Shown here: in pieces, positions 2,139 to 17,774 of the stretch | Layout: each line of letters opens with the position of its first letter | Position numbering within the stretch: position 1 is the stretch's first letter | Assembly (NCBI GenBank): GCA_964014485.1 | Contig: CAXHAT010000055.1 | Coordinates: forward strand, 1-40,975 | Origin: an uncultured Deferribacteres bacterium | GTDB taxonomy: Bacteria; Zhuqueibacterota; Zhuqueibacteria; Zhuqueibacterales; Geothermadaptataceae | Reading direction: 5' to 3' | Length of the DNA: 40,975 nt | The notes under the pieces: generated by a model | The model's database searches: none | Seen by the model: only the letters and a program-made list of their open reading frames with translations | Told to the model about the DNA's origin: nothing | Program-made: the position numbers and the translations under genes

Positions 2139-2145
2139 TTTAAAA

Positions 2146-2655: not shown

Positions 2656-4379
2656 AGGGGCAAGGGCGCAAAGGATCAAAGGCGCAGAGTGAAATTCTGC
2701 GCAGCGCTTCGCGCGCGCTCAAAGACATAAACACGGCCAAGAAACGTCGCTCGCACGATTGGGACTTTGCCGAGTGGCTGTGCAAGCATACGAGCGTGAA
2801 GGTCGGCGGCAGGCCGCGCAAGTGGTCGTTCAAGGGCTATGAGCCTTACAAACAAATCGCGGCGGACTTGCCGAACAGCCACGAAAACTGGCTGCTGAAG
2901 GGCGCGCAGATCGGCGCGAGCACGCTGATGATCGGTTACAATCTTTACTTGCCGTACTGGAAAGGTCTCGATTCAGCCTACGCCCTGCCGGACAAGGTGA
3001 TGATCAAGCCGTTTATGAAAACGCGCTTCTCGAAAGAGCAGGTCAGGCGCGACGGCGATCTCGGCGCGGTCTACCAGATGCACGAGTCGGACATGTACTA
3101 TGACTGCGGCGACAACTTTCTGTACTTCCTGGGCGCGAACGTGCTCTCGGAAACGATGAGCCGCCCGCTGGAGCAAATCTCGCTCGACGAGGTGACGATC
3201 ATCAACGCGGACGCGATGGAGTGGATGGAAGACCGGCTCGGCGCGGCCAGCTTCGGCCAGAAAAACGCCTTTACGATGGAGATGTATCCGGGCGGGACGG
3301 CGCACGTCGGCTATGAGAGCGGCAGACAAAACGTCTACCTGTTCAAGTGTCCGCACTGCGGCGAAGACGAGCAAAATCTGGAAGACGAGTTTTACCGCTC
3401 CAGCATGGCGGGCGAAGAGATTCCGCGCTGCGTGCATTGGAACGGGCGCAAATGGCAAGTGGTCTGCACCAAGTGCGGCCTGCCTTTTTCGCGGGAGAGC
3501 GCCGGGCGTTGGGTTGCAAAACATCCGACCCGCGATGTGAATTCGTGGCGCTTGCCGCAGTTGATTTTCGGCGGTCTCGATCTTGGCCGCGTCATGCGAC
3601 GCTGGCTCGCTTCGCGCTACAAGAAAAGCAAGCGCGCCAAGCTGCACTGCTCGATTCTGGCGATCCCCGACGCGGGCGACATGCAGCGCATCAACGAACA
3701 AGACATGCGCCTGCTGAAGCAAGACTATAAATTGCAACGCTCGGCCTTGTGGTCAGTCGGCGGCTGCGACGTGGGCAACTGGTGTCATACGGTTTTTTAC
3801 GATCTGGTTCAGGATCAAATGCGCCTGATTTGGGCGGAGAAGATCAACTCCGACCACATGGAAAGCCGCATTTGCGAATTGCTCGATAAGATGAATACGG
3901 TCAAGTACGTCATGGATGCGAAGCCGTTCGCGCCGCAAGTGCGCCGGATCGCGGACGCATTCCCGGACGTGGTCGTGCTGCACGATTACGCAGGCGACGG
4001 ACTGCAAGAGAACGAGAAGACGCACGCGGATCAGACCTACGCCAGCGTGCGCGAGGATCGCGACGATTCCCTGGATTATTACTGCGACCTGTTCAATCCC
4101 GAAGAGATTCTGCTGATGTTTCCGACGCTGGCCCCAGACGAAGACGGGCGCATGGTTGACTTTGAAAATTCAGAGTTCGCCAAACAGCATTACGTCGGTT
4201 CGCAAAAGACGGAAACGGAAGACAAGCGCCTCGGCAAGACCGTGCTGAAGTACCGCAAAAACTGCGACAATCATTACTTCATGGCGGGCAACTACGCACG
4301 CACGTCGTTGGTGCTGTTGGGGCAAGAGAATCGGGAGTTTGTGGGCTTAACGCCGGTATTTGGGAGTTTGAATGCTTGA
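2652..4379 (+). CDS. Terminase large subunit, lambda GpA-like
   Basis: Walker A-like LLKGAQIGAST, Walker B ISLDEV, zinc motifs CPHC and CTKC, nuclease motif GGCDVG, C-terminal DNHYFMA. Confidence 0.9.
   Translation: MKGQGRKGSKAQSEILRSASRALKDINTAKKRRSHDWDFAEWLCKHTSVKVGGRPRKWSFKGYEPYKQIAADLPNSHENWLLKGAQIGASTLMIGYNLYLPYWKGLDSAYALPDKVMIKPFMKTRFSKEQVRRDGDLGAVYQMHESDMYYDCGDNFLYFLGANVLSETMSRPLEQISLDEVTIINADAMEWMEDRLGAASFGQKNAFTMEMYPGGTAHVGYESGRQNVYLFKCPHCGEDEQNLEDEFYRSSMAGEEIPRCVHWNGRKWQVVCTKCGLPFSRESAGRWVAKHPTRDVNSWRLPQLIFGGLDLGRVMRRWLASRYKKSKRAKLHCSILAIPDAGDMQRINEQDMRLLKQDYKLQRSALWSVGGCDVGNWCHTVFYDLVQDQMRLIWAEKINSDHMESRICELLDKMNTVKYVMDAKPFAPQVRRIADAFPDVVVLHDYAGDGLQENEKTHADQTYASVREDRDDSLDYYCDLFNPEEILLMFPTLAPDEDGRMVDFENSEFAKQHYVGSQKTETEDKRLGKTVLKYRKNCDNHYFMAGNYARTSLVLLGQENREFVGLTPVFGSLNA
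2654..2692. repeat. Family A element A1 (left arm only, inside the terL 5' end)
   Basis: GAAGGGGCAAGGGCGCAAAGGATCAAAGGCGCAGAGTGA closely matches the left arm of A2. Confidence 0.9.
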
Positions 4380-4380
4380 A

Positions 4381-4492
4381 AAGGGGCAAAGTTGCAAAGG
4401 ATCAAAGGCGCAGAGTGAGACGCGCGGAGCGAAGCTCCGCCCAAAGACTTTGTCCCTTTGCGACTTTGATCCTTTGCCCCTTCTTAAAAAAA
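4381..4492. repeat. Family A element A2 (about 110-bp compound palindrome)
   Basis: AAGGGGCAAAG...octamer arm...GCGGAGCGAAGCTCCGC (4424-4440)...CTTTGCCCCTT followed by an A-run. Confidence 0.95.
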
Positions 4493-4582
4493 CAGATTGG
4501 ACTTGTTCGGCAGACGCGAGTTCAGTCTGGTTTGGATCGGCTTTGGCCGTCGTTGTGAGCGCGGCGGCGGTCAATGCCTTTT

Positions 4583-4685
4583 AGCAGTGAGCAGTGAGCA
4601 GTGAGCAGTGAGCAGTGAGCTGTAAGCAGTGAAGAGTAATTAGTGAAGACTAACAGTCTTCAGCCTAATAGACTAAAAGCCTAAT
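4583..4685. repeat. Family B heptamer array B1 plus CTAACAGC-like tail
   Basis: (AGCAGTG)x5 and degenerate copies, then CTAACAGTCTTCAGCCTAATAGACTAAAAGCCTAAT abutting ATG 4686. Confidence 0.95.
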
Positions 4686-7118
4686 ATGCTAAACTGGTTT
4701 CGAAAACTTTGGCGCAGATCGAGCGGGTTGAACGCTGACGAGTTGCTGCGCATGGCGCAGACGGCGCTGGCGGCGGAGGCGAACGGATCGGCAAAAGAGT
4801 CCGTCGTTGTTCCGGCGAACGGGCGCTCTTCGGTAGAGGAGTTCGGCACGATACACCAGGCGATGCAGCAAATGCTCGGTTGGTACGGCGACGGCTTGCA
4901 AGACGAACGGCTTTTTCAAGCGCTGGAATTTCTGTGCGAGTGTGCGCCCTATCATCCAGACATAAATCATGCGCTCAACAATCTGGTCAACATGGCCAAC
5001 AGCGGGCATTCGGTGAGCGTGGAAACAGGCTCGGATCGCGCGACGGAAGCGGCGCAAGAGCGACTCAATCAACAGGCGCATTCGCTCTATAAGCGCTCCG
5101 CCGGGATCGACGGCCTGATCAACCACTACTTGCGCCAGATCATGATCACCGGCGCGATTTCGAGCGAGGACGTACTGACCGGCGCGCTCGACGGCGTGGA
5201 GAAAATCGCCATTGTGCCGACGCGCAAGATTCGCTTTCAGGCGGACGGCGACGATTACGCGCCGTTTCAGAAAACCAACGACAGTCAATTGATTGCGCTG
5301 CATCCGGCGACCTACCGGTATTTCGCCTTGCAGACCAACGAGAATTCGCCCTACGCCCTGCCGCCCTTCGCCGCCGCGATTGACGACATACTGATCCAGA
5401 CGGACATGAAACAGAATCTCAAGTTCATTATGCGCAAGTTCGGCCTGCTTGGGTTGGTGGCGATGGTCATGAACAAGGGCAAAAAGAAGCCGAGCGAAAC
5501 CGAATCCGAGTACAACGCCCGGATGTCGAAGCATCAAAACGACACCCTGGTCGCCTTGCAAAAAAACTTCTACAAGGGTTTGATGGTGATGTTCGAAGAC
5601 AAGAAAATCGAGCATCACAACATCACCGGAGATGCGCGCGCGGCGAAAGACATTTGGAATCTGATCCGGCAGAATATCGCCAGCGGCATGGCGACCGATC
5701 CGGTGCTGTTCGGCATACCGACCAACTCGACCGAGACCTTTGCCAACGTCATCTATATGTTTATCATACGACAGGCGAACAATGTGCGCAGGCTGGTCGC
5801 CCGACGCATGGAATGCACTTATCGTTTGGATTTCTTGCTGCAAGGTCTGCCGGTGGAAGGCGTGAGCTTTCGCTTTGAAAAGAATCCGGCGCGCGATCCG
5901 CTGGCGGAAGGGCAGGCGCAGGCGACAATTGAGTCGGCAGCGATCAAAAAGGCGCAGGTCGGTATGATCGAGCCGGACGTTGCGGCGCAGGAATTGGGTT
6001 ACGACGGCTGGCACGATCCGGCGCTGATGCACGGGGCGGAACGGGTTTTCGGAGTCGGTGATGATCCGGGGTTGCGAGCGCATGGACTGGATTCCCGCCT
6101 GCGCGGGAATGACGGCGCGCTGACGCGCCGGACGTTCAGACTTAACAGTGGGCGGGAGCAGTATGAATTTGTCAGGCCGCGAGTGTTGGTTCAGGCCTCG
6201 GCGCACGCCTTCGCCCTCGCTTCGGAAGAGACGGTGCGCAAGACGCTGGCGAAGTGGCAAAAAGAATATCTCGATGCGATTCGACCCTTTCTTGGCGAAC
6301 AGGTCGAAGAGGCGGTTGAAGTGCTGGCGGCGTTTATTCGCCGGTCGAAATTGAGCGACTTCCGCGACGAAAAGGCTTTCGCGGAAGCGGCGTTCGCGAC
6401 CTTGTCAACGGCCTTCAATACCAAATTTCAGCAGGCCGACGCGCGCAAAGTGGTGAAGGATTCCGTCAAAGAGATTTACGAGTTCTACCGCCTGGAAGAC
6501 AAGGCGGCGTTTCCGAAAAGCGGCGGGGTCGCCTTTGCGATGGACTCCATCGACAAGCGTTCGCTCAACTTCATGACGCGCCTGGAGCGGCACTATCTTT
6601 CGAAGTTCATCTTCAACCAGAACACGGAAAAGCAGGTGCTCGACTTCCTGCAAACGCAGTTTCTGGAAAACGGCGACGGCCTGTTCGGGCGCACGAGCAG
6701 AGACGCAATTCAAACCTTGCAGGCGCTGGCGGTTGACCGGCTGGAATCCCTGACTGAATACGAAGCCGAGCGCATTATCAATACCGGCGTGCAGCGCATG
6801 AGAGCCTGGGCGAACATCGGGCAAATGTCGGATTCGGGCGTGCGGGTGGCGGAGATTTTCAACCCGTCGCCGGAGTCGGAAATCTGCAAGTTCATGGTCA
6901 ACGAGGTGAAGTACCTGCCCGTCGGCGAGGCGCGCAAGGCGGTGGACGAACTGAGCCAACTCACGCCGCGCCAGTTCGCGGGGCGCTTACGCAAGATTAC
7001 GCCGGAAGAGATCGCGAGCGAGGGCATTGTGAGCGCAACCCGCAACGGCTACGGCTTCCCGACTTACCATCCGAATTGCGCGACGCGATTGCTGGAGACG
7101 GAGAGAGATGCAGTGTAA
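4686..7118 (+). CDS. Portal protein fused to a Mu gpF/SPP1 gp7-like head morphogenesis domain
   Basis: Position after terL; about 450-aa portal-sized N-terminal part; C-terminal FPTYHPNCATRL resembles the gpF PPxHPNCRC motif. Confidence 0.75.
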   Translation: MLNWFRKLWRRSSGLNADELLRMAQTALAAEANGSAKESVVVPANGRSSVEEFGTIHQAMQQMLGWYGDGLQDERLFQALEFLCECAPYHPDINHALNNLVNMANSGHSVSVETGSDRATEAAQERLNQQAHSLYKRSAGIDGLINHYLRQIMITGAISSEDVLTGALDGVEKIAIVPTRKIRFQADGDDYAPFQKTNDSQLIALHPATYRYFALQTNENSPYALPPFAAAIDDILIQTDMKQNLKFIMRKFGLLGLVAMVMNKGKKKPSETESEYNARMSKHQNDTLVALQKNFYKGLMVMFEDKKIEHHNITGDARAAKDIWNLIRQNIASGMATDPVLFGIPTNSTETFANVIYMFIIRQANNVRRLVARRMECTYRLDFLLQGLPVEGVSFRFEKNPARDPLAEGQAQATIESAAIKKAQVGMIEPDVAAQELGYDGWHDPALMHGAERVFGVGDDPGLRAHGLDSRLRGNDGALTRRTFRLNSGREQYEFVRPRVLVQASAHAFALASEETVRKTLAKWQKEYLDAIRPFLGEQVEEAVEVLAAFIRRSKLSDFRDEKAFAEAAFATLSTAFNTKFQQADARKVVKDSVKEIYEFYRLEDKAAFPKSGGVAFAMDSIDKRSLNFMTRLERHYLSKFIFNQNTEKQVLDFLQTQFLENGDGLFGRTSRDAIQTLQALAVDRLESLTEYEAERIINTGVQRMRAWANIGQMSDSGVRVAEIFNPSPESEICKFMVNEVKYLPVGEARKAVDELSQLTPRQFAGRLRKITPEEIASEGIVSATRNGYGFPTYHPNCATRLLETERDAV
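6088..6112. repeat. Family C palindrome, copy 2, in-frame within the portal gene
   Basis: Identical to 2114-2138; lies within the codons for LDSRLRGND. Confidence 0.95.
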
Positions 7119-7142
7119 GCAGTGAACTGTAATCAGTGAATA
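7110..7142. repeat. Family B heptamer remnant B2
   Basis: GCAGTGTAAGCAGTGAACTGTAATCAGTGAATA, containing the portal stop codon. Confidence 0.8.
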
Positions 7143-7260
7143 GATGAAAGCGCGAGATTCGGCGTGAGAGCGACTTTTACGGCGAGACGCATCTTGTCGG
7201 GCGCAAAAAAGCGGCGGCATAGCCCTGGGACACGATGGGACAGGGTAAAATGGATTTGCG

Positions 7261-7292
7261 AAGACTGGAAGACTGAAATATTGGAGTTCTGG
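7261..7292. repeat. Degenerate octamer array upstream of the protease gene
   Basis: AAGACTGG AAGACTGA AATATTGG AGTTCTGG. Confidence 0.6.
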
Positions 7293-7296
7293 ATCG

Positions 7297-8544
7297 ATGG
7301 ATAAAAAGTTAGCGAAAAAACTGGCGGGCGTTGAGCTTTTGGCGGAGAATCGCATTGCGACCTGTTTGCGCGCGCCGCACCTGCCGCGACTGAGCGATTC
7401 CGGCACGGATGAAGACGTGTTTCAATTGCAGGGTTTCCAGCCGCAAAACAAGTCTGAATTCGCGCCGCAGGACGACGACTATATTTTCGAAAGCTTCCGG
7501 GCGATCTCGGCGCGCTATCTGGGCGCTCGCGGCTACTTTCTCGACTTCGCAACGGAAGGGATGCTTGAAAAAGCCCTGCCACTTTTTCTACCAAAGGACA
7601 AGGGCGGGTCGCGCCTGGATCATCTCAAACTGGTTGAAGATCATTGGAATCATATTAACGCCCAGATCGCTCCGATCATCCTGGCTTCATGGAGCGAAAA
7701 AGACGGCGATCTCGATTCGCCGGGCATTAACGTCACGGCCAAGATCGATTGGAAGCTCAATCCGAAAATCGCGCGCGGTTTTCAATCCAGGCCGCCGCTG
7801 TACGACAATACGTCGATCAGCTTCGTCGGCCAGACCGAACAGTCTCACCCGGACATGAAGTGGATCGAATTCATCTTTGCGCTCGGCGAAGAGCGCGACA
7901 GCGAAATCGTGCGCTGGATCGTGACCGAGGTCGAAGAGATCAGGCATCTTGGCTTGGTCAGCAACGGCGCGGATGAACACGCCAAAAAACTGCCGGGCGG
8001 CGAAATGGCGGCGCAGTTGATCGCCAACGCTGAAAACGGCTCCAAGCAATTCTTTTTGAATGAACCGACAACGGGAGAAAACGACATGGATGAATTAAAG
8101 CTTTCGCCGGAGAATCTGGCGGAGTTGGCGAGCGTGTTGGGCGTGGAAATCACACTCGAAAGCGCTGACCAACTCATCTCGCTGGTGACGACGGCAATGG
8201 AGAACCACGACGCTCTCAAGGCGGAGCTTAAGCAAGCAAAGCCGAAGGCAAAGCTTTGGGATGAACATTTGAGCGCGCAGCGTGAAGCGGTGAAAAAGCT
8301 GCTTGGCAAGGCGCGCGACGGCAAAAACAACGCGGGCACCGAGCGCATCATCGAGAGACTGGATTGGGAAGAACTTTCCGATCTGGAAGACGAACTCAAC
8401 GACGAACTCGACGCGAAATTCCCGCTCAAGTGTCAAAGCTGCGGCGAGACCAATCTCAAGCGGCGCTCGTCGCGGGAAGAGCCGGAAGCGAGGCCGGAGG
8501 GCGACGGCCAGCGCGTCAATGCGCAAAGCTACCGGGACGTTTAA
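7297..8544 (+). CDS. Prohead protease with C-terminal scaffold
   Basis: Synteny; candidate catalytic His (EDHW) and Ser (TSISF); RHLGLVSNGADEHA resembles the E-x-S-L-V-x-x-P-A strand of HK97-type proteases; charged helical C-terminus with CQSC. Confidence 0.7.
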   Translation: MDKKLAKKLAGVELLAENRIATCLRAPHLPRLSDSGTDEDVFQLQGFQPQNKSEFAPQDDDYIFESFRAISARYLGARGYFLDFATEGMLEKALPLFLPKDKGGSRLDHLKLVEDHWNHINAQIAPIILASWSEKDGDLDSPGINVTAKIDWKLNPKIARGFQSRPPLYDNTSISFVGQTEQSHPDMKWIEFIFALGEERDSEIVRWIVTEVEEIRHLGLVSNGADEHAKKLPGGEMAAQLIANAENGSKQFFLNEPTTGENDMDELKLSPENLAELASVLGVEITLESADQLISLVTTAMENHDALKAELKQAKPKAKLWDEHLSAQREAVKKLLGKARDGKNNAGTERIIERLDWEELSDLEDELNDELDAKFPLKCQSCGETNLKRRSSREEPEARPEGDGQRVNAQSYRDV

Positions 8545-8564
8545 GACCGGACGTGAACGGCCTC

Positions 8565-8600
8565 CAGTAATGAGTAAGCAGTGAACTGTAAACAGTCAAC
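8565..8600. repeat. Family B heptamer remnant B3
   Basis: CAGTAATGAGTAAGCAGTGAACTGTAAACAGTCAAC. Confidence 0.75.
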
Positions 8601-8613
8601 GGAGATATGAGAC

Positions 8614-8979
8614 ATGAGTTGGAAAACACAAAAGTTTCAAGGGATCGGCGTGCAGCGCGTCACTTTTCAAAACGGCGGCGCGCTCACGGCGGCGGACGTA
8701 GGCAAGGCATGTAATATTGACGGCGCAACCGGCGATCTCATCATCGGCTCGACGGATACTTTGCTCGGCAGGATCGAACAGGTGGCGGATGACGACGTAG
8801 CCGTCGCCGTCCAGGGCTTTCTTGAATTCGATTACACCGGCGCTCAACCAACGCGCGGCACGATTCAGGAATTCACGGTCGAATCTGGGGGTGAAGTGCA
8901 GGTTGGGGTCGGATCGCGGCAAGCGTATGTGATCGACGTGGACGCGCCGAACACAAAAGTCACTTTGATGCTTCTTTAA
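8614..8979 (+). CDS. Probable capsid decoration/cement protein
   Basis: 121 aa, Gly/Val/Thr-rich beta protein between scaffold and capsid genes; GGAGA upstream. Confidence 0.6.
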   Translation: MSWKTQKFQGIGVQRVTFQNGGALTAADVGKACNIDGATGDLIIGSTDTLLGRIEQVADDDVAVAVQGFLEFDYTGAQPTRGTIQEFTVESGGEVQVGVGSRQAYVIDVDAPNTKVTLMLL

Positions 8980-8981
8980 AA

Positions 8982-9086
8982 AAGGGGCAAAGGAACAAAG
9001 GCGCACAGGCGCAAAGTGTGATTCGCGGAGCAAAGCTCCGCTCGGTTACTTTGTCCCTTTGATCCTTTGACACTTCTCAAAAAAAA
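8982..9086. repeat. Family A element A3
   Basis: AAGGGGCAAAGGAACAAAGG...GCGGAGCAAAGCTCCGC (9025-9041)...CTTTGTCCCTTTGATCCTTTG followed by an A-run. Confidence 0.95.
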
Positions 9087-9099
9087 CGGAGTCAACAAC

Positions 9100-10227
9100 A
9101 TGGATTTAAAACAACTTATACGTTTCGCCAAAATGAACGGCGTTGACGTTGGCGCGTTGAGCGCGCTCGTGCCGGGGCCGGGCGCTGAAGTGGACGCTTC
9201 GAAGTTTAAAAAACTGAGCCTTGAAGCGGGCATGTATCAGGACGCGGCGCGCGACGGCGTAAGCTTCAGCGAGTTCCTGGAAAGGCAAGACCCCAGCGAA
9301 AACTATCCCGGCGTGGAGCTTGATGCATTTCAGCGCCAGCTTGCCGCGCACGGCCTTGCGGTCAAAGGGCCTGGCTGCGTCAATCTGGAGGCGTTTTATA
9401 AGCACGGCGCGGTGCTCTTTCCCGAATGGGTGGATCGGCAGGTGCGCGTCGGCCAGATTTTCAACACGCGGCACTTTCAGGACGATGACGTTGTACGGGT
9501 GGAAGAGCAGATTGACAGCAGCGCCTTTGAAGCGATGAAGGTCGACCCGATCACGGAAGACGACTACGCATACGCGCCCGTCGCCGAAGGGGCGGAAATC
9601 CCGCGCATCAAGGTGGATCACTCAGACGTGACCGGGAAATTGCGCAAGCACGGCTTTGTCCTGGAAGCGACCTACGATTTCCTTGCCGATCAGCGCATGG
9701 ACATGATTTCGGTCTGGCTGCAAATCGCAGCGCTCAAGCTGATCAAGGACAAGGCGGAGCACGCATTGGATATTCTGATCAACGGCGTGCCCGGCAACGC
9801 GAACCCCGCCGTGAACTATCCCTTGAGCAACGTCGATCTGACCAACTTTATCACCTTTAGCGAGAGCTTCGACGTTTACGAGCCGAGCCTGATGATCGCG
9901 GACACGGCGGGCGTGACGGCGATCAAAACGATCTCCGAGTTCGCCAGCCAGTTTATGGCTGCGGAATGGCTGCGGCGCGACCGTATGGAAACGCCGGTCG
10001 ACAGTATGATCAAAAAGCACGTCTATCCGAATTCGTCGCTCTTGACCAACAATATCGTCGGCGTGGATCAGCGCTTTGCGCTCAAGCGCATTGTGCGCGC
10101 GGGTTCCCGGCTGGTGGAAACGGACAAGTTGATCACGTCGCAGTGGCAGCAAATCGTCGTGAGCGAGAAAATCGCCTATGACAAGATGCTTTCCGGCGAG
10201 GTGGTCAAGGTTTGGGATTACTCCTAA
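9100..10227 (+). CDS. Major capsid protein (HK97 fold)
   Basis: 375 aa; VAEGAEIP and KLRKHGFVLEATYD motifs typical of HK97-fold capsids; GGAG upstream of ATG 9100. Confidence 0.85.
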   Translation: MDLKQLIRFAKMNGVDVGALSALVPGPGAEVDASKFKKLSLEAGMYQDAARDGVSFSEFLERQDPSENYPGVELDAFQRQLAAHGLAVKGPGCVNLEAFYKHGAVLFPEWVDRQVRVGQIFNTRHFQDDDVVRVEEQIDSSAFEAMKVDPITEDDYAYAPVAEGAEIPRIKVDHSDVTGKLRKHGFVLEATYDFLADQRMDMISVWLQIAALKLIKDKAEHALDILINGVPGNANPAVNYPLSNVDLTNFITFSESFDVYEPSLMIADTAGVTAIKTISEFASQFMAAEWLRRDRMETPVDSMIKKHVYPNSSLLTNNIVGVDQRFALKRIVRAGSRLVETDKLITSQWQQIVVSEKIAYDKMLSGEVVKVWDYS

Positions 10228-10244
10228 ACGCTTTTGACGCTCAG

Positions 10245-10273
10245 TGAAGGGCGGCGCTCAAGCCGCACTTTCA
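10245..10273. repeat. Hairpin downstream of the capsid gene
   Basis: TGAAGGGCGGC-GCTCAA-GCCGCACTTTCA imperfect stem, no U-tract. Confidence 0.5.
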
Positions 10274-10306
10274 TCTAAACGTAAACCATAAATCACGGTG
10301 AATCAT

Positions 10307-10588
10307 ATGACTGTCAAAGTAAAGCTCAAGCCTGAAATTGAAAAGCAGGGCGGGTTGCTGATCGACCCGATCAGCGGCGTAAAAATCGCCAGGCAAAACT
10401 ACGGCGAAGACGGTTGTCAGGAAGTCACGATGACGGCCTTTGTGCGCAAGCGCATCAAGTCCGGCGATCTCATCGAGTGTCGCGGCGACGACGGCGATGG
10501 GGATGCGCCCGACCCAAATGCGGGGAACGAAAGCGGAAAGGAGCCGGGGAACGATCCGGGAAAAAAGAAGAGCGGCGCAAAAAAGTAA
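10307..10588 (+). CDS. Small phage head-region protein with a low-complexity tail
   Basis: ORF after the capsid gene, with a D/G/P/K-rich C-terminus. Confidence 0.7.
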   Translation: MTVKVKLKPEIEKQGGLLIDPISGVKIARQNYGEDGCQEVTMTAFVRKRIKSGDLIECRGDDGDGDAPDPNAGNESGKEPGNDPGKKKSGAKK

Positions 10589-10668
10589 TGCGGCGAATCG
10601 GCTGTTGGCTGCGGCGGCTGGGCGACTGGCTTCTGGAGCGGTTCCAACGCTTGAACAGTGAACAGTGA
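10588..10668 (+). CDS. Possible 26-aa amphipathic peptide
   Basis: TAATG overlap with the previous stop; MRRIGCWLRRLGDWLLERFQRLNSEQ; stop supplied by the heptamer array. Confidence 0.4.
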   Translation: MRRIGCWLRRLGDWLLERFQRLNSEQ

Positions 10669-10767
10669 ACAGTGAACAGTGAGCAGTGAGCAGTGAGCAG
10701 TGAGCAGTGAACTGTAAGCAGTTTTCAGCTAACAGCCTTCAGCCTAAACCCCTAACAGCCTAAAGAA
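10654..10767. repeat. Family B heptamer array B4 plus CTAACAGC tail
   Basis: (AACAGTG)x4 (AGCAGTG)x4 AACTGTA AGCAGTT, then CTAACAGCCTTCAGCCTAAACCCCTAACAGCCTAAAGAA-ATG. Confidence 0.95.
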
Positions 10768-11220
10768 ATGATTGCAGATGCAGCACATGTTCGTGCGCTG
10801 GGCAACTTCCCGGACGCTTTAGAGGACGCGCAGATCGACCCGCACTTGCGAGCGGCCCGAAGACGCTTGCGGCGCTGGGTCGGCTCTGCCGTCTATGACG
10901 AAGCGGAAGCGGACGCGGGGCCAATGGCCAAGCCGCAAACCGAAGCGTTGAAGGACGCGGAGGCGTATCTCGCGATCAGTATTGGCGTGCGGTCGTGGAA
11001 CGTCGTGATCGAGAACGTTGGCAACGCTGGCGTTTCCGGGCTGACTGAATCAGGCAAGATCGGCGACGACGGTTTTCGCTATCTCTCGCAGGGTGCAGTC
11101 GAAAAGATGCAGGAAGACTTCATGCTCAAGGCGGAAGCCTCGGCGCTGGACTGGATCATCGAGGATTATCCAACGCCCGAAAGTTCGCCCGCCTATGACG
11201 ACGAAGGCGAAGCGATTTAA
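10768..11220 (+). CDS. Probable head-tail adaptor
   Basis: 150-aa helical protein with typical size and position after the capsid gene. Confidence 0.6.
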   Translation: MIADAAHVRALGNFPDALEDAQIDPHLRAARRRLRRWVGSAVYDEAEADAGPMAKPQTEALKDAEAYLAISIGVRSWNVVIENVGNAGVSGLTESGKIGDDGFRYLSQGAVEKMQEDFMLKAEASALDWIIEDYPTPESSPAYDDEGEAI

Positions 11221-11236
11221 CAACCCCCTAACATAA

Positions 11237-11265
11237 CCCCGTCAGGGTTCAGAACCCTGACGGGG
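11237..11265. repeat. Family E palindrome with perfect 14-bp arms
   Basis: CCCCGTCAGGGTTC-A-GAACCCTGACGGGG. Confidence 0.9.
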
Positions 11266-11277
11266 GTTGACTGCGGA

Positions 11278-11616
11278 GTGCAAATCATGTTGTTTTTGAA
11301 TATGCAAATCATGCTTTGGATGCAAATCTTCGGTGAAACGCCGGAGTTGTATTCGGCGCTGTTCGGTCAAACGATGGTAGTGGAAATCGCCGGGGTGATC
11401 GGCGTGACCAAGCTGTTTCGCAACACGGTCAACATCAAGGGCAAGTGGGCGCTCGTTTCGACGTTCGCCTTTAGCCTGGGCTACGCGCTTTGGCAGTACG
11501 GCCTGCAAGGACAAGGCGCGATGTACGGCCTGTTGATCGGCTCGCTCGCGGCGTTGAGTTTCTGGCTCACAAAGCGGACAGGGAAGACGGTGAATCCTGA
11601 AGGGAAAGGGGCATAG
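11278..11616 (+). CDS. Small membrane protein, holin-like (start uncertain)
   Basis: About three hydrophobic segments and a basic C-terminus (KRTGK); several alternative starts between 11278 and 11320. Confidence 0.55.
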   Translation: MQIMLFLNMQIMLWMQIFGETPELYSALFGQTMVVEIAGVIGVTKLFRNTVNIKGKWALVSTFAFSLGYALWQYGLQGQGAMYGLLIGSLAALSFWLTKRTGKTVNPEGKGA

Positions 11617-11716
11617 GCGCAAAGGCACAGAGTGACAAAGTAACTGAGCGCGGCTCCGCCTCGCCAGCGACGCTTTGCCCCTTTGATCCTTTGTCCATCT
11701 GCCCCTTCTAAAAAAA
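11606..11716. repeat. Family A element A4 (degenerate core)
   Basis: AAGGGGCATAGGCGCAAAGGCACAGAGTG...GCTCCGCC...CTTTGCCCCTTTGATCCTTTG...GCCCCTTCT, then an A-run into ATG 11717; contains the upstream TAG stop. Confidence 0.9.
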
Positions 11717-12151
11717 ATGGCGAATCCGAAAATAGACTTTAAGCTCGACGACGCTGAATTCCGCAAGCTGGCCAGTCAGGTCATGCCGGAGAAGGCGGAG
11801 AAAGGCTTGCGCCGCACCGCTGGGCAGATCGAACGGGCGGCGGCGAAGCGCGCGCCAGTGGAGACCAAGAACCTGGTCAATACGATCACCAAATCGTTTT
11901 CCGGTTCCGGCTACCACGTGGAAGCCGAGATAAAGGCCACGGCGACTTATGCGCTTTTTGTCCACGAAGGCACTGGGCTTTTCGGCCCGAAGGCGCAGAA
12001 GATCACGCCGGTGAACGCAAGGGCGTTGAAGATCATGACCCCGAACGGCGTGATTTACCGCAAGAGCAGCAAGGGTCAGAAGCCGCAGCCGTTTCTCAAA
12101 GACGCTTTCGAAATGGAAGCGCCGAAATTGATACCGAGAATTCTGGAGTAG
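11717..12151 (+). CDS. HK97 gp10-family neck/tail-completion protein
   Basis: AKRAPVETKNLVNTI, YALFVHEGT and GQKPQPFLKDAF motifs. Confidence 0.9.
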   Translation: MANPKIDFKLDDAEFRKLASQVMPEKAEKGLRRTAGQIERAAAKRAPVETKNLVNTITKSFSGSGYHVEAEIKATATYALFVHEGTGLFGPKAQKITPVNARALKIMTPNGVIYRKSSKGQKPQPFLKDAFEMEAPKLIPRILE

Positions 12152-12260
12152 TGGCAAAGGCGCATAGGCGCAAAGGATCAAAGTGGACGAGCGGAGCGAA
12201 GCTCCGCCAGTTACACTCTGTGCCTTTGTCCCTTTGCCACTCTGCCCCTTCTTAAAAAAA
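12151..12260. repeat. Family A element A5
   Basis: GTGGCAAAGGCGCATAGGCGCAAAGGATCAAAG...GCGGAGCGAAGCTCCGC (12191-12207)...GCCCCTTCTTAAAAAAA-ATG. Confidence 0.95.
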
Positions 12261-12740
12261 ATGACTGAACTCATCGACAGACTCGAAGAAATTCTGCTCG
12301 CGGCGACGGCGACCGGCGAGGCGCTGGAAGGTTGGCAGATTATGACTTCCCTGCACGACGGACTGGCCGACAAATCGATTTATATTCGCGGCGACGGCGA
12401 GGACATCAAGACCGAAGCGAACCCGCTCGAATATGTGGAAGCGCAGGTGACGTTCCTGATTCTGAAGCATATCGGCAAGCACAATCCGGCGACGATGAAA
12501 AGACACGACTACCAGACGACGGCGGAGACGGGCGGACGGGCTTTGCGGGGCGTATTTTACGGCAATCTGACGCTCGTAACGGCGGGCGATCCGGGCGGAC
12601 TATTGAAGTGCGCGCGCGACTTGCGCTTTACGCGCTCGCAGCCGACCGCAACCACGCTCAAACAAGGCTGGTTTGCTGGCAATGAATTGACGATGAAGGT
12701 GAAATATCTTTATCGCGACGGGGGGATCAATAAGCAGTAA
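12261..12740 (+). CDS. Probable tail terminator
   Basis: 159 aa, between the gp10-like gene and the tail tube gene; ATG 12261 follows the repeat. Confidence 0.55.
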   Translation: MTELIDRLEEILLAATATGEALEGWQIMTSLHDGLADKSIYIRGDGEDIKTEANPLEYVEAQVTFLILKHIGKHNPATMKRHDYQTTAETGGRALRGVFYGNLTLVTAGDPGGLLKCARDLRFTRSQPTATTLKQGWFAGNELTMKVKYLYRDGGINKQ

Positions 12741-12779
12741 GCTGTGATCAGTAATCAGTAATCAGTAATCAGTAAATAG
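12733..12779. repeat. Family B heptamer array B5
   Basis: AGCAGTA AGCTGTG (ATCAGTA)x4; contains the upstream TAA stop. Confidence 0.9.
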
Positions 12780-12792
12780 AACGAGGCGAGAT

Positions 12793-13026
12793 ATGGCGAA
12801 AAGAGCGGAATCGCCGGAAGACTTCGGCGAAAAGTTTGAAAAAATGGCCAAGAAAACGCTGAGATGCAGATTGAAAACGGACGGCATTCCGCCCTACGGC
12901 TCGGCGCGGCGCAAGCTCAAGGACGGCGCGGTTTACGTGCTGTTTCTCAGCGAAACGACGGTCGTCAAGGCCGAGCATTTGGCTGAATTGCAAAAACTGG
13001 AACCCTTACTCTCTGTGGAGGAATAG
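12793..13026 (+). CDS. Hypothetical phage protein
   Basis: 77-aa ORF with GAGG upstream, in operon context. Confidence 0.65.
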   Translation: MAKRAESPEDFGEKFEKMAKKTLRCRLKTDGIPPYGSARRKLKDGAVYVLFLSETTVVKAEHLAELQKLEPLLSVEE

Positions 13027-13029
13027 ATC

Positions 13030-13572
13030 ATGCCTGAAGAAATCCTGCCGACTATCGGCATACACTCGGTTGAGCTTGACGCTTACGGCGGCGACTTCAG
13101 TTCGCCGACAATCTTCGATTGCTTCGACCGGGACGAGGGCCTGAAGTGGAATCCTGTCATCGGTGAAAGCAAGCAAATGGCGGCGGACGGGCCGGGCGTA
13201 CAAAACTTTGCATCCTGGGTCGATGAACTTGTGGTCGAATTCAGGATCGAAGATCATTCGGCGACGAATTTCGCTTACATGTTTGGCCTTTCGCCAGCGG
13301 ATATTGTGGACGACTCCGTCTCGAATCCAAAAACCAAGACAATCAACACAGGCAACAGAATCAGCGCAACGGAATACGCGCTGCAAGTCAAAGTCCCGCA
13401 ACGCATCGATCCCGCGCTCTTTATGATCTACAGGTTTACGCGCGTTATTCCCGTGGCGATGGGGCCGCCTGACCAGACAATGGAATTGTCCTGGGTGTCG
13501 CTCAAGTTTATGACCTTGCGAGACAAAAACAATCAGGGCAGAGTTTGGACAAGAATTAAGGAATACGCATGA
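13030..13572 (+). CDS. Major tail (tube) protein, non-contractile type
   Basis: 180-aa beta-rich protein preceding chaperone and tape measure genes; GGAGG RBS; no sheath gene seen. Confidence 0.7.
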   Translation: MPEEILPTIGIHSVELDAYGGDFSSPTIFDCFDRDEGLKWNPVIGESKQMAADGPGVQNFASWVDELVVEFRIEDHSATNFAYMFGLSPADIVDDSVSNPKTKTINTGNRISATEYALQVKVPQRIDPALFMIYRFTRVIPVAMGPPDQTMELSWVSLKFMTLRDKNNQGRVWTRIKEYA

Positions 13573-14084
13573 GCGACGTGAAACAATTTGACCTGAACGG
13601 CAAGAAGTACGCGCTTGAAGACTTCTCGGTCGATCAGGACGAGTACAGCGCCGATATTCTGGCGGACATTGGATTCAACAGACTATTGCCGCACGCGCCC
13701 GCCATTTATAAAATCTATGAAGCCATGACGGCGGACGAGGAAAATGATGCGGAAGCAAAGGGCGATTCAGGTGCGGAAGACGTTTTGGGCGGCTTGGGTC
13801 TCAAGGACTTTGCGGGGCTTCTTGAAATCGATGTTGACGGTTTTATCAGAGCGATAGCCGGAAAAGCGATTTTGTTTCGCATGATCGCGGCGGCGCTTAC
13901 GCCGGTCAACAGCCATTGGTCTAAAGAAGTGATTGATGAAATCGAGCCTTTCATCAGGCGCATGAAGCGCTCGGAATACTTTCCTGTGGTCGCTTTTTTT
14001 TTAGAGAAGTTCGGGCTGTCAATGAACTCAGAAGGCGATACTTCCCCGACGCTAAAAAAAGCGAAGACGGGAAACCGGAAATAG
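13569..14084 (+). CDS. Tail assembly chaperone (gpG-like)
   Basis: Between tail tube and tape measure genes; slippery T9A at 13994-14003. Confidence 0.75.
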   Translation: MSDVKQFDLNGKKYALEDFSVDQDEYSADILADIGFNRLLPHAPAIYKIYEAMTADEENDAEAKGDSGAEDVLGGLGLKDFAGLLEIDVDGFIRAIAGKAILFRMIAAALTPVNSHWSKEVIDEIEPFIRRMKRSEYFPVVAFFLEKFGLSMNSEGDTSPTLKKAKTGNRK

Positions 14085-14395
14085 ACGGCGAGCGCAGCTT
14101 CAACGCCGCCAGAGTCCTTTGGGAACTGGCGGAAGGCGACGTGCAGCGCATCCCGGAAATCAGGCGCGCCAAAGTTAAAGTCATGCTCGGATGGCTCTAT
14201 GAAAAGCGGCGGCGCGAGCTTGAAGAGATTCGCTTTCAGGCGGCTTTGCACGGCGTGCAACTCAAAGGCGAAGGCGGGCGGACGGCGAGCCTGGAAGCGC
14301 AATTGGCGGGCGTGACGGAGAAGCCCTACAGCGTGAAGCGCGTCAAAGTCTCGCCGGAAGAATTGGAACGAAGAAGGAAGGCGTTAGGCCATTAG
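14000..14395 (+). CDS. Tail chaperone -1 frameshift extension (gpT-like)
   Basis: The -1 frame is open from 13940 to 14395 and reads FREVRAVNELRRRYF...LWELAEGDVQRIPEIRRAKVKVMLGWL. Confidence 0.75.
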   Translation, partial: FREVRAVNELRRRYFPDAKKSEDGKPEIDGERSFNAARVLWELAEGDVQRIPEIRRAKVKVMLGWLYEKRRRELEEIRFQAALHGVQLKGEGGRTASLEAQLAGVTEKPYSVKRVKVSPEELERRRKALGH

Positions 14396-14453
14396 GCTTT
14401 AGACTATTAGCCAAAAACCTGACAGCCTAAAGCCTAACAACCTAAAGGTCTAA
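14379..14453. repeat. TTAGGC/GCCTAA short-period inverted repeat element
   Basis: Left arm GTTAGGCCATTAGGCTTTAGACTATTAG, right arm CTGACAGCCTAAAGCCTAACAACCTAA; contains the upstream TAG. Confidence 0.85.
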
Positions 14454-14457
14454 AAGA

Positions 14458-16605
14458 ATGGCGACGGTTGCGGACATTGTCGGGTTTCTCAGGCTGCGCG
14501 GCGGATCGCAGTTTGATCGCGAATTGAAAAAGCGCCTCACCGTGGCGCGGCAAAGTTTTGCCACGGTCGGCAACGCGATAACCACGATTGCGGCGGGCGG
14601 CATTTTCCAGAAGATCAATGCGGCGGCGAATGCGCTGGAAACATCGCAGCGCAAGCTGAATGCGACTTCCAGGCTCACCGGCATTGAGTTTGGCAAACTT
14701 CGAAGCTTCTCCGAGGATGCGCGCAAAGAGCTTGGCCTGAGCACGAAACAGGCGAACGAGTTCACCATTGCCGTGTCGAAGCTCACCAATAAGGCTGGAG
14801 ACGTGGACAAGACCGGCGACGCGATTTCGCGCTTGCTCGATCTGGCGGCGGCGCAGGGTCTCAACGCCGAGGAAGCTTTGGTCGCCATTCAGCAGGCGAT
14901 TCTCGGCATTGACGAAGGGACGGACAAGCTTTTCCAGAAAAACCCGTCCGTGATTTACGCCGAATACGCCAAGCAGATCGGCACGACGGCGGGCAAGCTC
15001 AACGACCAACAGAAGGCGCAAGCCCTGCTCAACGCCGTGATGACGGACGGTCTGAAGGTGCAGGGCGAATATCAGAACTTTTTGCAAAGCGCAGCCGGAC
15101 GGCAATCGACTTTGGCGGTAAAAACCGAGCAGCTTGCGGCCAAGTTCGGCAAGCTGGCGCAGCAGATCGGCGGGCCGGTTGTGGCGGCGCTGACCAAAGC
15201 GGCGGATTTCTTTATCAATGCGCCGCCCTGGGTGCGCAATCTGGCGGCGGCTTTGGGTATTGCCACCGTTGCGCTCAAACTCTTCGGCGGCGCGATTCAG
15301 GCGCTTTTTGTCAGTCTCGGGCCGGTCGGCTGGCTGTCAATTGCGCTGGGGACGATTGCCACGGCGTTTTTTGCGTTAGGCGCGGCAACCGAAGCGAGTC
15401 GCGACAAGCTTGCCGGATACCGCAAGGAATTGGATAAATTCAGAGAGACGGTGCGCGGGCTGACCGACGACGACCTGAAAGCGCAGGAAACGGCCATGCG
15501 CAGGCAAATCGCTTTCCTGGAGAGCATGGCGACGAATATAAGGCAGATTCGCAGACGCGCCCTGTTCGGCAATGCGGACGAAAAAGAACTTCAGTTCGTG
15601 CGCGTCAATCGCGACGTGGGTCAGCAACTCAAGGAAGCGCGCGACAAGCTTGCCGCCTTTATGCAGGAAACGGAAAGACGGGACAAGGAACACAAGGCCA
15701 AGCTGCTGGAGCAAAGAAAACAACTCTCGGCTGAAGAGAAAGAACTCGAAGAGAACCGAGTGCGGTTTGAGTTTGAGCAGGGGGAAATCAGCCGGGCGCA
15801 GTATCTTGCATTTCTGAAAAAACGGCAAGGCGATTTCAAGGAATGGTCGAGCGATTGGCTGGGGCTGCACAAAGATATTCTTGAGCAGGAAAAAGCGTTG
15901 CAGGTCGAGCAAAACGCCGAGGTCAAGCGCGCGGCTGATGATCAACTGGCGCTGCAAATGAAGATTCCTGAACAGATGCAATTCGCCAGCGAGCAGGCGC
16001 TCGATGCAATGGCGACGAAGCTGGCGCTTATGGAAGACGTGGCGCGCGAAAAAACAATGGCGATGGTGGAAATCATCGGGACGTTTGCCGGGAATATTGG
16101 ATCAGCCTTCGCAGATGCGCTGCGCGGCGACCGGGGCGGCTTCAAGGAAGCGCTCAAGAGCATTCTCATTGATACGCTCGGCTTTATCCAGCGCTTTTTC
16201 ATTCTGGCGAAAATCAAGACGATCATCGAAGGCGTGCTCAATCCTTTCACGGCGCTCAAAAGTTCCGCCGGTCTGATTGCGGCGTTCGCCGCTTTGGAAG
16301 CGGCGAAAGGGGCGATTGCCAGCTTTGCCGAGGGCGGGATCGTTTCACGCCCGACGTTGGCGATTGTCGGCGATTCGCCGCGCGGCCCGGAGATCATCGC
16401 GCCGAAGCAGGATTTTCTGGCGCATTCGCAGGCGCTCATCAGCGAAGCTTTGGCGGGCAATCGAACGCGAGGGGGCGACTTCAAGATCGTCAATAATTTC
16501 AATACGCCGCTGCAGGATCGCAGGCAGGCCAGACAGTTGACGGAAAAGAATCTGAAACCGGAATTGAGACGACAACAGAAACGCGAACGAAGGCATTTGG
16601 TTTAG
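14458..16605 (+). CDS. Tape measure protein
   Basis: 715 aa, Ala-rich helical, hydrophobic segments, C-terminal FAEGGIVSRPTLAIVGD...GPEIIAP motif. Confidence 0.9.
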   Translation: MATVADIVGFLRLRGGSQFDRELKKRLTVARQSFATVGNAITTIAAGGIFQKINAAANALETSQRKLNATSRLTGIEFGKLRSFSEDARKELGLSTKQANEFTIAVSKLTNKAGDVDKTGDAISRLLDLAAAQGLNAEEALVAIQQAILGIDEGTDKLFQKNPSVIYAEYAKQIGTTAGKLNDQQKAQALLNAVMTDGLKVQGEYQNFLQSAAGRQSTLAVKTEQLAAKFGKLAQQIGGPVVAALTKAADFFINAPPWVRNLAAALGIATVALKLFGGAIQALFVSLGPVGWLSIALGTIATAFFALGAATEASRDKLAGYRKELDKFRETVRGLTDDDLKAQETAMRRQIAFLESMATNIRQIRRRALFGNADEKELQFVRVNRDVGQQLKEARDKLAAFMQETERRDKEHKAKLLEQRKQLSAEEKELEENRVRFEFEQGEISRAQYLAFLKKRQGDFKEWSSDWLGLHKDILEQEKALQVEQNAEVKRAADDQLALQMKIPEQMQFASEQALDAMATKLALMEDVAREKTMAMVEIIGTFAGNIGSAFADALRGDRGGFKEALKSILIDTLGFIQRFFILAKIKTIIEGVLNPFTALKSSAGLIAAFAALEAAKGAIASFAEGGIVSRPTLAIVGDSPRGPEIIAPKQDFLAHSQALISEALAGNRTRGGDFKIVNNFNTPLQDRRQARQLTEKNLKPELRRQQKRERRHLV

Positions 16606-16732
16606 AAGGGACAAAGGCGCAAAGGGTCAAAGGGTCAAAGGATCAAAGGCACACAGGCACAGAGTGTGAATCGCGGAGCGAAGCTCCGCCTTACTACTTT
16701 GCCCCTTTGATCCTTTGCTCCTTTGCCCCTTC
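16605..16732. repeat. Family A element A6 (expanded left arm)
   Basis: GAAGGGACAAAGGCGCAAAGGGTCAAAGGGTCAAAGGATCAAAGG...GCGGAGCGAAGCTCCGC (16673-16689)...CTTTGCCCCTTC. Confidence 0.95.
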
Positions 16733-16744
16733 CAAAGGAAAACA

Positions 16745-17011
16745 ATGGATCAGACTGTACAGCAATTGGTTGCGCAAGCGCCGGGCGTGGCGGGCGTGGT
16801 GATGGTGATGTTGATATTATTGCGCTACATCCAGGCGGCTGAAAGGACGCGCGCGGAAACCTACAAAGTAACCAGTGACAAGCTCGCCGTCGCCCAGGAA
16901 AAAACGGCGCAAGCAATTGAAGCCAACACGAAAATGATGGGGCGCGCCCTGGCCGTTATCGAGCGTCATGAAAAGGCGCTGGACGCAATTGAGCGGCGAT
17001 TGAATCAGTGA
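16745..17011 (+). CDS. Small single-TM plus coiled-coil protein (BhlA/XhlA-like holin candidate)
   Basis: One N-terminal hydrophobic helix followed by a coiled coil; AGGA upstream. Confidence 0.55.
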   Translation: MDQTVQQLVAQAPGVAGVVMVMLILLRYIQAAERTRAETYKVTSDKLAVAQEKTAQAIEANTKMMGRALAVIERHEKALDAIERRLNQ

Positions 17012-17035
17012 ACAGTGAACAGTGAACAGTGAACA
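17004..17035. repeat. Family B heptamer array B7
   Basis: ATCAGTG (AACAGTG)x3; contains the upstream TGA. Confidence 0.9.
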
Positions 17036-17056
17036 AAGCAACTTAGGAGACGCACT

Positions 17057-17554
17057 ATGCTCAAGACAAAAGATCAAGTGAAATCGATTGGCTCGGTGGA
17101 AGATTTGGAAAAGGCGATGAAGGAATTGGCCTTAGTACACTTCAAGCAACAGGAAGCTTTGGGAGAAATCAACGGCCAAATGTCAGAACTCAAGGAAAAA
17201 CTGGCGGCGAAAACCAAGCCGTTTTCCGAGCGCATCGCCGCGCTGAATATGATGATCGAGAACTACTGCACCGAGCAAAAAGCGGTGCTGTTCAATGAGA
17301 AAAAGCGCAGCCTGAAACTGCAATTCGGGCAGGTGGGTTTCAAGGCTTCGAAAGCGCTCGAAACCACGGAAAAGACGCTCAAAATTTTACTCAGCCTGCC
17401 GCTGAAAGTCAAAAAGATGTACTTGAAGATGACTCCCGCCATTGACAAGGCGGCGCTCAAAAAAGCGCCCGCCGAAGAGTTGAAAAAATACGACGCGAAA
17501 ATCGTTGAAAACGAGAATTTCTTCTGTAAGCCGAATCAAGTCGTCTCGGCCTGA
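17057..17554 (+). CDS. gam: Mu Gam-like host-nuclease inhibitor (DNA end-binding)
   Basis: Long N-terminal coiled coil, then LFNEKKRSLKLQFGQVGFKAS, IDKAALKK and C-terminal ENFFCKP, the pattern of the Mu Gam family; AGGAG RBS. Confidence 0.85.
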   Translation: MLKTKDQVKSIGSVEDLEKAMKELALVHFKQQEALGEINGQMSELKEKLAAKTKPFSERIAALNMMIENYCTEQKAVLFNEKKRSLKLQFGQVGFKASKALETTEKTLKILLSLPLKVKKMYLKMTPAIDKAALKKAPAEELKKYDAKIVENENFFCKPNQVVSA

Positions 17555-17579
17555 CGGGAGGACGGAAGGCGGAGAACAC

Positions 17580-17602
17580 AGGGGCGCGATGCTCGCGCCC
17601 TT
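17580..17602. repeat. REP-like hairpin
   Basis: GGGCGCGA-TGC-TCGCGCCC at 17582-17600. Confidence 0.65.
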
Positions 17603-17612
17603 TAAATGCGAG

Positions 17613-17774
17613 ATGAAGTACATCAAGATTGACCAATACGGACTGTTTCTATTCAAGTACCGCTTTGCCAACGAAGCCATGATGGAAAGAATTCGCAGAC
17701 AGCCGGAACCTGCAAAGCTTTATCATCACTACAAGCTTTTGGGTCTCAATATCTTCGTGAGACGAGAAAGGTGA
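17613..17774 (+). CDS. Small hypothetical protein
   Basis: MKYIKIDQYGLFLF...; stop overlaps the next GTG start. Confidence 0.5.
   Translation: MKYIKIDQYGLFLFKYRFANEAMMERIRRQPEPAKLYHHYKLLGLNIFVRRER

Follow-up and report, generated by a model that had tools for sequence, protein, structure and literature searches.

Tandem-octamer hairpins inserted at the gene junctions of a prophage late operon: probable selfish cassettes akin to rRNA intervening sequences

The late operon and its hairpins

The stretch of DNA analysed here (the window, 40,975 nucleotides) is the whole of contig C55 (CAXHAT010000055.1) in the genome of an uncultured Deferribacteres bacterium (G000; 8.4 Mb in 465 contigs, 50% G+C), and the sequencing runs found to contain it are three DNA runs of one marine-metagenome study, with no RNA run among them. 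Much of it is taken up by a prophage late operon (Table 1), which also encodes a head protein, a major capsid protein, an HK97 gp10-like neck protein and tail-fibre-like genes, and in which a 715-aa protein occupies the position expected for the tape-measure gene. Cellular genes begin at 27.7 kb (two with a beta-lactamase fold, one for a phytase, rimP-nusA-infB and the gene for tRNA-Sec), and the phage is therefore integrated, or a remnant. Five hairpins of 101-132 nt, each at a gene junction of the late operon, and one solitary left arm make up what we call Family A, the subject of this report.

Each hairpin is built from a left arm of the type (NNCAAAGG)n, a right arm of the type (CCTTTGNN)n and the centre GCGGAGC-GAA-GCTCCGC. 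The arms hold 3-7 units, and neighbouring units can be identical (GGTCAAAG, for example, stands twice in the 16603 copy), which points to slippage. The elements begin with TT(G/A)A(G/A)AAGGGGC and end with GCCCCTTCT(T/C)AA, so that terminal inverted repeats are present, and the loop consists of the 17-nt mini-hairpin only, with no open reading frame (ORF) of the PF05635 family, to which we return below. Their polarity can be defined: inner left units read CAGAG and inner right units CTTTG, and the plus strand outscores the other in all seven copies known to us, namely the five of the window and two on another contig of the genome, C463. An earlier note, made from the letters of this DNA alone, had described five full copies and one half copy, all of one polarity, starting at or within a few bases of stop codons and mostly ending in a run of A. 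This description holds, with limits of our own: the core is exact in three copies, has an AAA loop in one and is degenerate in one, the five copies of the window share their polarity, the upstream stop codon lies inside or touches the left end in all five, and a run of 7-8 A follows four of them.

Table 1. Family A and other features of the window. Scores are those of a covariance model built from the seven copies.
Feature	Position	Strand	Location	Details	Score (bits)
Family A copy 1	4376..4487	+	Large terminase (stop TGA 4377-4379) / portal junction	Core 4424-4440; A-run 4486-4492	115.7
Family A copy 2	8978..9078	+	Head-decoration-like gene (stop TAA 8977-8979) / major capsid (ATG 9100)	Core with AAA loop 9025-9041; right arm shortened	97.9
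Family A copy 3	11599..11710	+	g11278 (stop TAG 11614-11616, within the first octamer, CATAGG) / HK97 gp10-like gene (ATG 11717)	Centre degenerate (GCGGCTCCGC)	82
Family A copy 4	12148..12252	+	gp10-like gene (stop TAG 12149-12151) / next gene (ATG 12261)	Core 12191-12207	102.9
Family A copy 5	16603..16734	+	715-aa gene (stop TAG 16603-16605) / next gene (ATG 16745)	Core 16673-16689; seven left octamers, four right octamers	119.3
Half copy	2652..2692	+	Start of large terminase (GTG 2652)	Left-arm-like octamer run encoding the first ~13 codons	
Prophage late operon hosting the elements	2113..27609	+		Small and large terminase, portal, protease, capsid, neck and tail genes, Mu Gam-like gene	
Second and third word families	4583..4687	+	Terminase-portal gap	(AGCAGTG)7, then AGCCTAA-type units	
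Similar single-arm arrays	7114-7140, 8574-8600, 10652-10766, 12726-12775, 14414-14447, 17001-17035, 18000-18039				
Mu Gam-like end-protection gene	17057-17554		Middle of the tail-gene block		
37-nt direct repeat	623-659 and 17965-18001		Near the left contig end; ahead of the 1256-aa gene	92% identical; contains a CCCCCTTCAAAGGGGG hairpin	
Two 69-nt direct repeats	546-722		Upstream of DUF4062 gene	90% identical; each with a perfect 24-nt palindrome, AAATCGGAAATCGATTTCCGATTT	
tRNA-Sec gene	33588-33683	+	Host part of the contig	68.8 bits vs cut-off 47	

The concentration of the repeated word at these places is far beyond chance. With up to one mismatch, the doubled word CAAAGGNNCAAAGG occurs 27 times in the window, where 0.34 (sd 0.64) occurrences are expected and none of 100 shuffles has as many; every one of these matches falls in the six Family A places. 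When folded as RNA the five copies reach -39 to -71 kcal/mol (z -4.1 to -7.3), and for none of them was any of 200 shuffles as good. The half copy does not share this behaviour, its region being unremarkable in folding (z -0.8; 43 of 200 shuffles as good), nor is it intergenic: it provides the first codons of the large terminase gene, whose GTG start overlaps the TGA of the small one. The terminase of the window is about 8 residues longer at its N-terminus than that of the closest related phage, L103, as judged from a KRRR/KKRR motif aligned by eye.

Family A copies are insertions at gene junctions

Used as a lone probe, the capsid protein found no relative in viral contigs, and 166 other genomes of the phylum, searched at E 1e-10, gave none either; an alignment of database capsid homologues, on the other hand, allowed us to gather 160 related phage and prophage loci. 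The closest of them, L103, is syntenic with the window from the small terminase gene to the 715-aa gene, with identities of 60% for the terminase, 53% for the portal, 39% for the capsid and 47% for the 715-aa protein. At the syntenic junctions the genes of L103 overlap or are spaced by 1-96 nt, whereas the spacing in the window is 100-306 nt at the five hairpin sites. No long junction hairpin is found in L103, L023 or L024, and no array of 7- or 8-nt units in L103, L023 or L105, L024 having one row of period 14. Because the closest syntenic relative has overlapping or abutting genes at the very places where the hairpins lie, the Family A copies are shown to be insertions at gene junctions. The 88-aa gene that L103 carries between terminase and portal is without any trace in the corresponding gap of the window. 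In terms of array density, the phage part of the window (5.8 per 10 kb, 16 arrays in 27.7 kb) compares with a median of 0 per 10 kb over the 160 related loci, only two of which exceed it, and with ~0.37 per 10 kb (313 arrays) over the whole genome. Four other phages of the capsid clade (L172, L107, L042 and L069) do have word hairpins of their own at junctions, built from different words.

The same word recurs elsewhere in this genome. The core, exact or with one mismatch, is found six times, four times in the window and twice on C463, a phage early-gene contig of only 1.6 kb, whose genes lie on the minus strand and include one resembling a CII-like phage activator (E 1.3e-6). By the polarity measure both C463 copies are antisense to their genes, one of which reads into an arm and ends there, as g11278 does in the window. 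Hairpins of the same word with other centres follow host genes for AcrB, ClpS, a CMD-family protein and a solute-binding protein; a host hairpin on C183 matches the left arm of the 11599 copy over 36 bases without a difference, and one on C290 has a degenerate core and is flipped relative to the plus strand of its contig. Other hairpins of this genome score 49-59 bits against the covariance model, compared with 82-119 bits for the seven copies from which it was built, and weaker GCAAAG-type hairpins (27-50 bits) turn up in 35 of 124 further genomes of the class. Runs of three consecutive octamers, with up to one mismatch, occur 42 times in this genome vs 0-5 times in each of 40 relatives (the tallies over relatives include two unpublished genomes, G016 and G023, on which no conclusion depends).

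The centre, in contrast to the word, is no marker of the family elsewhere: in a viral contig collection the 17-nt core has 10 matches, about the number estimated for chance, none of them with octamer arms, and a longer pattern of the subfamily has no match in metagenome contigs. In three of the viral contigs (L183, L191 and L192) an identical core is centred in a different nested palindrome made of several small GC hairpins. Two further hairpins of this genome were seen in passing. One, of the same word, lies at ~1395-1620 of C159 (L197), with a left arm of five perfect GGCACACA units and a loop holding a GC-rich insert of ~130 nt without a match in Rfam; the other, a weak CAAAG/CTTTG hairpin at ~740-810 of C373, appears by eye to stand in the spacer of two tRNA genes upstream of the 23S gene.

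Among matches in relatives' genomes we first spotted a four-helix-bundle gene lying between CAAAG-type arms. The family concerned, PF05635 (23S-rRNA intervening-sequence or Avd-like proteins), has nine matches in the present genome, seven of them above the cut-off of Pfam, and all seven are flanked by inverted short-word arrays, with a different word for each gene. The C58 gene (E 2.6e-41; its match to bAvd is weaker) has the Family A word, CAAAGG, on both sides: upstream there is an array of five units together with a small hairpin that has GCGAAGC in its centre, and downstream a full hairpin. Two others, on C250 and C205, are flanked by the words C(A/T)GTGAG and AGCCTAA, as found in the single-arm arrays of the window. 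Relatives of the C58 protein are present in 137 of 167 genomes of the phylum; the two nearest (65% and 57% identity, in other genomes) carry CAAAG-type arms, and the other 27 loci that we fetched (40-50% identity) carry other words, mostly heptamers. Over 34 cassettes, protein similarity and word similarity correlate (Mantel r = 0.20; 0 of 2000 permutations reach this value). Since the same word flanks a PF05635 gene and follows its closest relatives into other genomes, we argue that it belongs to a lineage of elements and not to the phage or the host. The proposal of the earlier note that the hairpins are non-autonomous elements is thus supported by their absence from the syntenic junctions of relatives, by the same word at host junctions and by its presence around a PF05635 gene. 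Its suggestion to look for a copy enclosing a gene was borne out in so far as the C58 gene is flanked on both sides by the word; no transposase-encoding copy with the same ends turned up, the covariance-model search of 125 genomes returning hairpins only (11 foreign matches were read). Four-helix-bundle genes are absent from the 160 related phage loci at E 1e-5, apart from one weak match in L107 that resembles the Avd of a diversity-generating retroelement. At 12076-14649 of L107 there is, by eye, an apparent retroelement of this kind, with a tail-fibre C-terminus, an asparagine-rich copy of it just downstream and a small Avd-like gene between.

The single-arm arrays of the window consist of C(A/T)GT(G/A)A(G/A/T) heptamers and AGCCTAA-type units, all in one polarity. 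TGA or TAA is present in each unit, so that a run of three closes every frame, and for several upstream genes the end lies within the first unit of such an array (7116-7118, 12738-12740 and 17009-17011). Counting all three word families, Family A among them, 12 of the first 19 junctions of the operon are occupied and none of the last six. Genome-wide, with crude longest-ORF calls for genes outside the window, arrays of three word families have mostly co-directional or convergent genes as neighbours, divergent pairs being rare (69, 20 and 6, respectively, for the GGATTG type; 18, 3 and 1 for the CAGTRAN type), and in 29 of 35 sense cases the array starts no more than ~20 nt from the upstream stop. 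Many contigs end in pure word arrays (C279:1-70, C332:5574-5643, C250:1-60 and C9:1-60, for example), with 3 to 43 such contig-end arrays per word family; word arrays break the assembly, and the copy numbers are therefore underestimates. Of the other repeats of the window, the 69-nt pair upstream of the DUF4062 gene looks like operators.

Taken together, we consider it probable that the Family A hairpins are selfish cassettes like the intervening sequences (IVS) of rRNA, gene-less and carried as passengers at prophage junctions where they are tolerated. Copies would have been inserted exactly at those late-operon junctions at which related phages have overlapping or abutting genes, and the insertion would be tolerated because the left terminus (T-G/T/A-A followed by GAAGGGGC) provides the upstream stop codon or adjoins it and because the A-rich flank on the right does not obstruct the next start codon. 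Slippage would subsequently alter the number of units, and their lengths of 7 or 8, which are not multiples of three, could together with stop-containing words and ends close any frame quickly. In the late transcript each copy may form a long stem, imperfect in that an internal loop interrupts it every 5-6 bp, which the RNase III of the host, whose gene is present in the genome, may conceivably cut or bind, as is described for the Coxiella IVS (PMC4990558) and Correia elements (PMC2649163). The phage would have no need of these elements, which would survive as selfish passengers only where no gene is broken.

Several observations weigh against this interpretation. Neither an insertion event nor a target duplication nor an empty allele was seen, and the relatives (39-60% protein identity) are too distant for the sites to be rebuilt base by base; the flanks of the seven copies, when read for target-site duplications, showed none, their T-rich and A-rich composition blurring the ends. 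Under insertion purely by chance, the shared polarity of all five window copies is expected one time in 16. The C58 gene is flanked by two word hairpins and does not plainly lie in the loop of one, and may therefore be just another gene with hairpins at its junctions. Inverted arrays of other words also flank ordinary genes, such as a glyoxalase-like one (identified by eye from its translation), and we accordingly rejected a gene in the loop as a general rule. Shared descent alone suffices for the correlation between word and protein. Finally, of the 303 arrays of the genome, 63 match its own nine cassettes vs 42 matching 28 foreign ones, which is a modest excess, and most arrays match neither.

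Tests of other explanations

Instead of being passengers, the hairpins could be working parts of the phage, their RNA stems having been selected to process, stabilise or uncouple the late polycistronic mRNA as RNase III sites or 3' protectors. We regard this as unlikely, even though the five late-operon copies lie in one polarity exactly between stop and start codons, fold strongly, lack a U-tract in every case, so that read-through is possible, and occur in a genome with an RNase III gene, and even though four other phages of the capsid clade have junction word hairpins as well. Selection on the folded structure had been suspected in the earlier note on the grounds that the arms vary while pairing is roughly kept. 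In the seven-copy alignment 91% of cells are indeed paired, vs 31-52% when partners are slid, and a long stem is present. However, there is no consensus pair, out of 32, in which both partners are changed, and at 0.036 the covariation score falls short of the mean of shuffled alignments (0.057). The paired columns are those of the invariant word, with the NN spacers looped out in internal loops. When the arms of the seven copies were swapped, the cognate combination (-394.7 kcal/mol) proved to be among the worst, 99.3% of the 5040 arm permutations folding at least as well (mean -429, sd 16.6). Moreover, the two strands are equal in folding, whether as RNA or as DNA. G-U pairs confined to the sense strand were considered as a strand test; this was rejected, as the energies are equal on both strands, and the G-U positions are inherited, being shared with the antisense C463 copies. 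Selection on a particular RNA structure is thus not supported, and the suspicion of the earlier note is not upheld. The stems exist because the two arms are one word and its complement, and not through pair-by-pair maintenance; that they are kept by a conserved word, without compensatory change, suggests a sequence that is read or copied by some factor in place of an RNA structure under selection. The antisense position of the two C463 copies, the closest syntenic relatives that do without hairpins, and the same word at unrelated host junctions likewise speak against a role in late phage expression.

It is just as doubtful that the hairpins are DNA elements of the REP or MITE kind, moved by a transposase that recognises folded single-stranded DNA (Y1, of the IS200-IS605 or RAYT type), with the mini-hairpin as the recognition point. 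The centre does contain GCGAAGC, and DNA mini-hairpins of the type GCGNAGC are unusually stable (PMC13037366); both DNA strands fold (z -5.8 to -9.1), the elements resemble REPs in being located at 3' ends and outside genes, and the genome has seven matches to the Y1 family (PF01797). Yet none of these seven genes has the word array, or any array of 7- or 8-nt units, within 500 nt, each having 0-3 stray CAAAGG or CCTTTG hexamers, and no target duplication was seen in the flanks. Same-word hairpins at host sites have quite different centres, and the mini-hairpin is therefore not needed for the family; in viral contigs, conversely, the core occurs without octamer arms. Elements of 100-130 nt made of tandem words are also unlike REPs of 20-40 nt. 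Two weak Y1 matches of this genome (C64:29299-29628 and C76:24971-25300) are flanked by GTCGTTTGTAGTTCA...CTTCAG motifs, and these pairs may be true REP-RAYT systems unrelated to Family A.

A bolder possibility, to which we likewise give little credence, is that the words serve as an address code. As the TRAP ring does with spaced triplets, each pentameric four-helix-bundle lineage (IVS or Avd-like) might read its own word of 7-8 nt, the operon arrays serving as handles by which the C58, C250 and C205 proteins would copy arrays in, or would hold or silence late transcripts. This reading rests on the five chains in each of two solved entries for relatives of the protein, 2GSC and 2RLD, and on a conserved word with free spacers.

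Least probable of all appears to us the related reading, that the arrays are putative binding sites on which a ring oligomer of each lineage would sit, one word per subunit, on single-stranded RNA or DNA, and act on the transcripts or DNA that carry them: the word is conserved although the spacers are free and unpaired, it persists where nothing pairs with it, in surplus left-arm units and in single-arm arrays, it tracks the protein lineage, the three words of the window are those of three PF05635 cassettes of the genome, the two solved relatives have five chains each and the arms 3-7 units, but shared descent and slippage account for the same facts, the match to own over foreign cassettes is modest, and the Coxiella S23p protein is seemingly not made in vivo (PMC4990558).

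Comparison with known elements

The interpretation that we favour, selfish gene-less cassettes, bears on two old puzzles, since to our knowledge there has for decades been no explanation either for the short tandem intergenic repeats of 7-8 nt or for the small four-helix-bundle genes found in rRNA intervening sequences. The window shows the gene-less form of such an element at unusual density within a virus genome, where relatives without it make the insertion sites comparable and where a gene-bearing copy in the same cell uses its word as well. What is new here is the dense colonisation of a prophage, the subfamily with a conserved GC mini-hairpin at its centre and the explicitly negative covariation tests. 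On the practical side, annotators need to know these arrays, because they break assemblies, add codons to the ends of genes and create false ORFs. A literature search that left most subscription journals outside its reach found no paper linking the PF05635 family to tandem-word arms or describing the element, and no link between the STRR repeats of cyanobacteria and four-helix-bundle genes.

A match to a described REP, MITE or Rfam family, which would have spoken for an element already known, was sought and not found. No Rfam family reaches its gathering cut-off, the sole match being a plant miRNA model (30.9 bits vs a cut-off of 96), and intrinsic terminators offer no better fit, as no Family A copy is among the 36 terminator-like sites in 1-19000 and the copies are followed by A-runs, not T-runs.

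The closest likeness is to the ORF-bearing IVS of 23S rRNA in Coxiella burnetii and Leptospira. The Coxiella IVS is described (PMC4990558) as a selfish element with a terminal stem of 28 bp and an S23p ORF in the loop, excised by RNase III. Both are selfish insertions, in our view, whose inverted repeats form a long stem, both are located in transcribed RNA that must stay functional, and the gene-bearing relatives found here share PF05635, the S23p family. The differences are that IVS lie in rRNA, whereas Family A lies between phage protein genes in many copies and without a gene, and that the near-perfect stem of the IVS contrasts with arms of tandem 8-mers with looped-out spacers. The 23S gene of the present genome (C373:1003-4017) has no tandem array.

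Correia elements have a TA target duplication and a site for IHF. The Correia or NEMIS elements of Neisseria (PMC2649163, PMC2229807) are comparable in being ~100-150 nt long, with inverted repeats and a core, and in being transcribed with their neighbours; according to PMC2649163 they bind RNase III, which either cuts or protects them, and by analogy they may be the nearest model for a possible action of Family A. They differ in sequence and host phylum, and their ends are single inverted repeats where those of Family A are arrays.

REPs are imperfect palindromes of 20-40 nt with a conserved GTAG end and a Y1 (RAYT) transposase as partner. Like Family A, REP/BIME and REPIN-RAYT elements are non-autonomous palindromes outside genes, at 3' gene ends and within operons, present in many copies, and a gene flanked by inverted copies may in both cases be the master. 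Family A is, however, 101-132 nt long, has tandem-word arms and no GTAG end, and its word flanks a four-helix-bundle gene instead of a Y1 transposase.

The STRR of heterocyst-forming cyanobacteria are heptamer repeats, short tandem words between genes. Their word length, too, is not divisible by three, and the heptamers of the window (CAGTGAA type) resemble an STRR word, whereas Family A has a period of 8, forms hairpins and belongs to a non-cyanobacterial genome. Were the address code true after all, rRNA intervening sequences, the STRR repeats of cyanobacteria and the Family A hairpins would come together as one protein-guided system.

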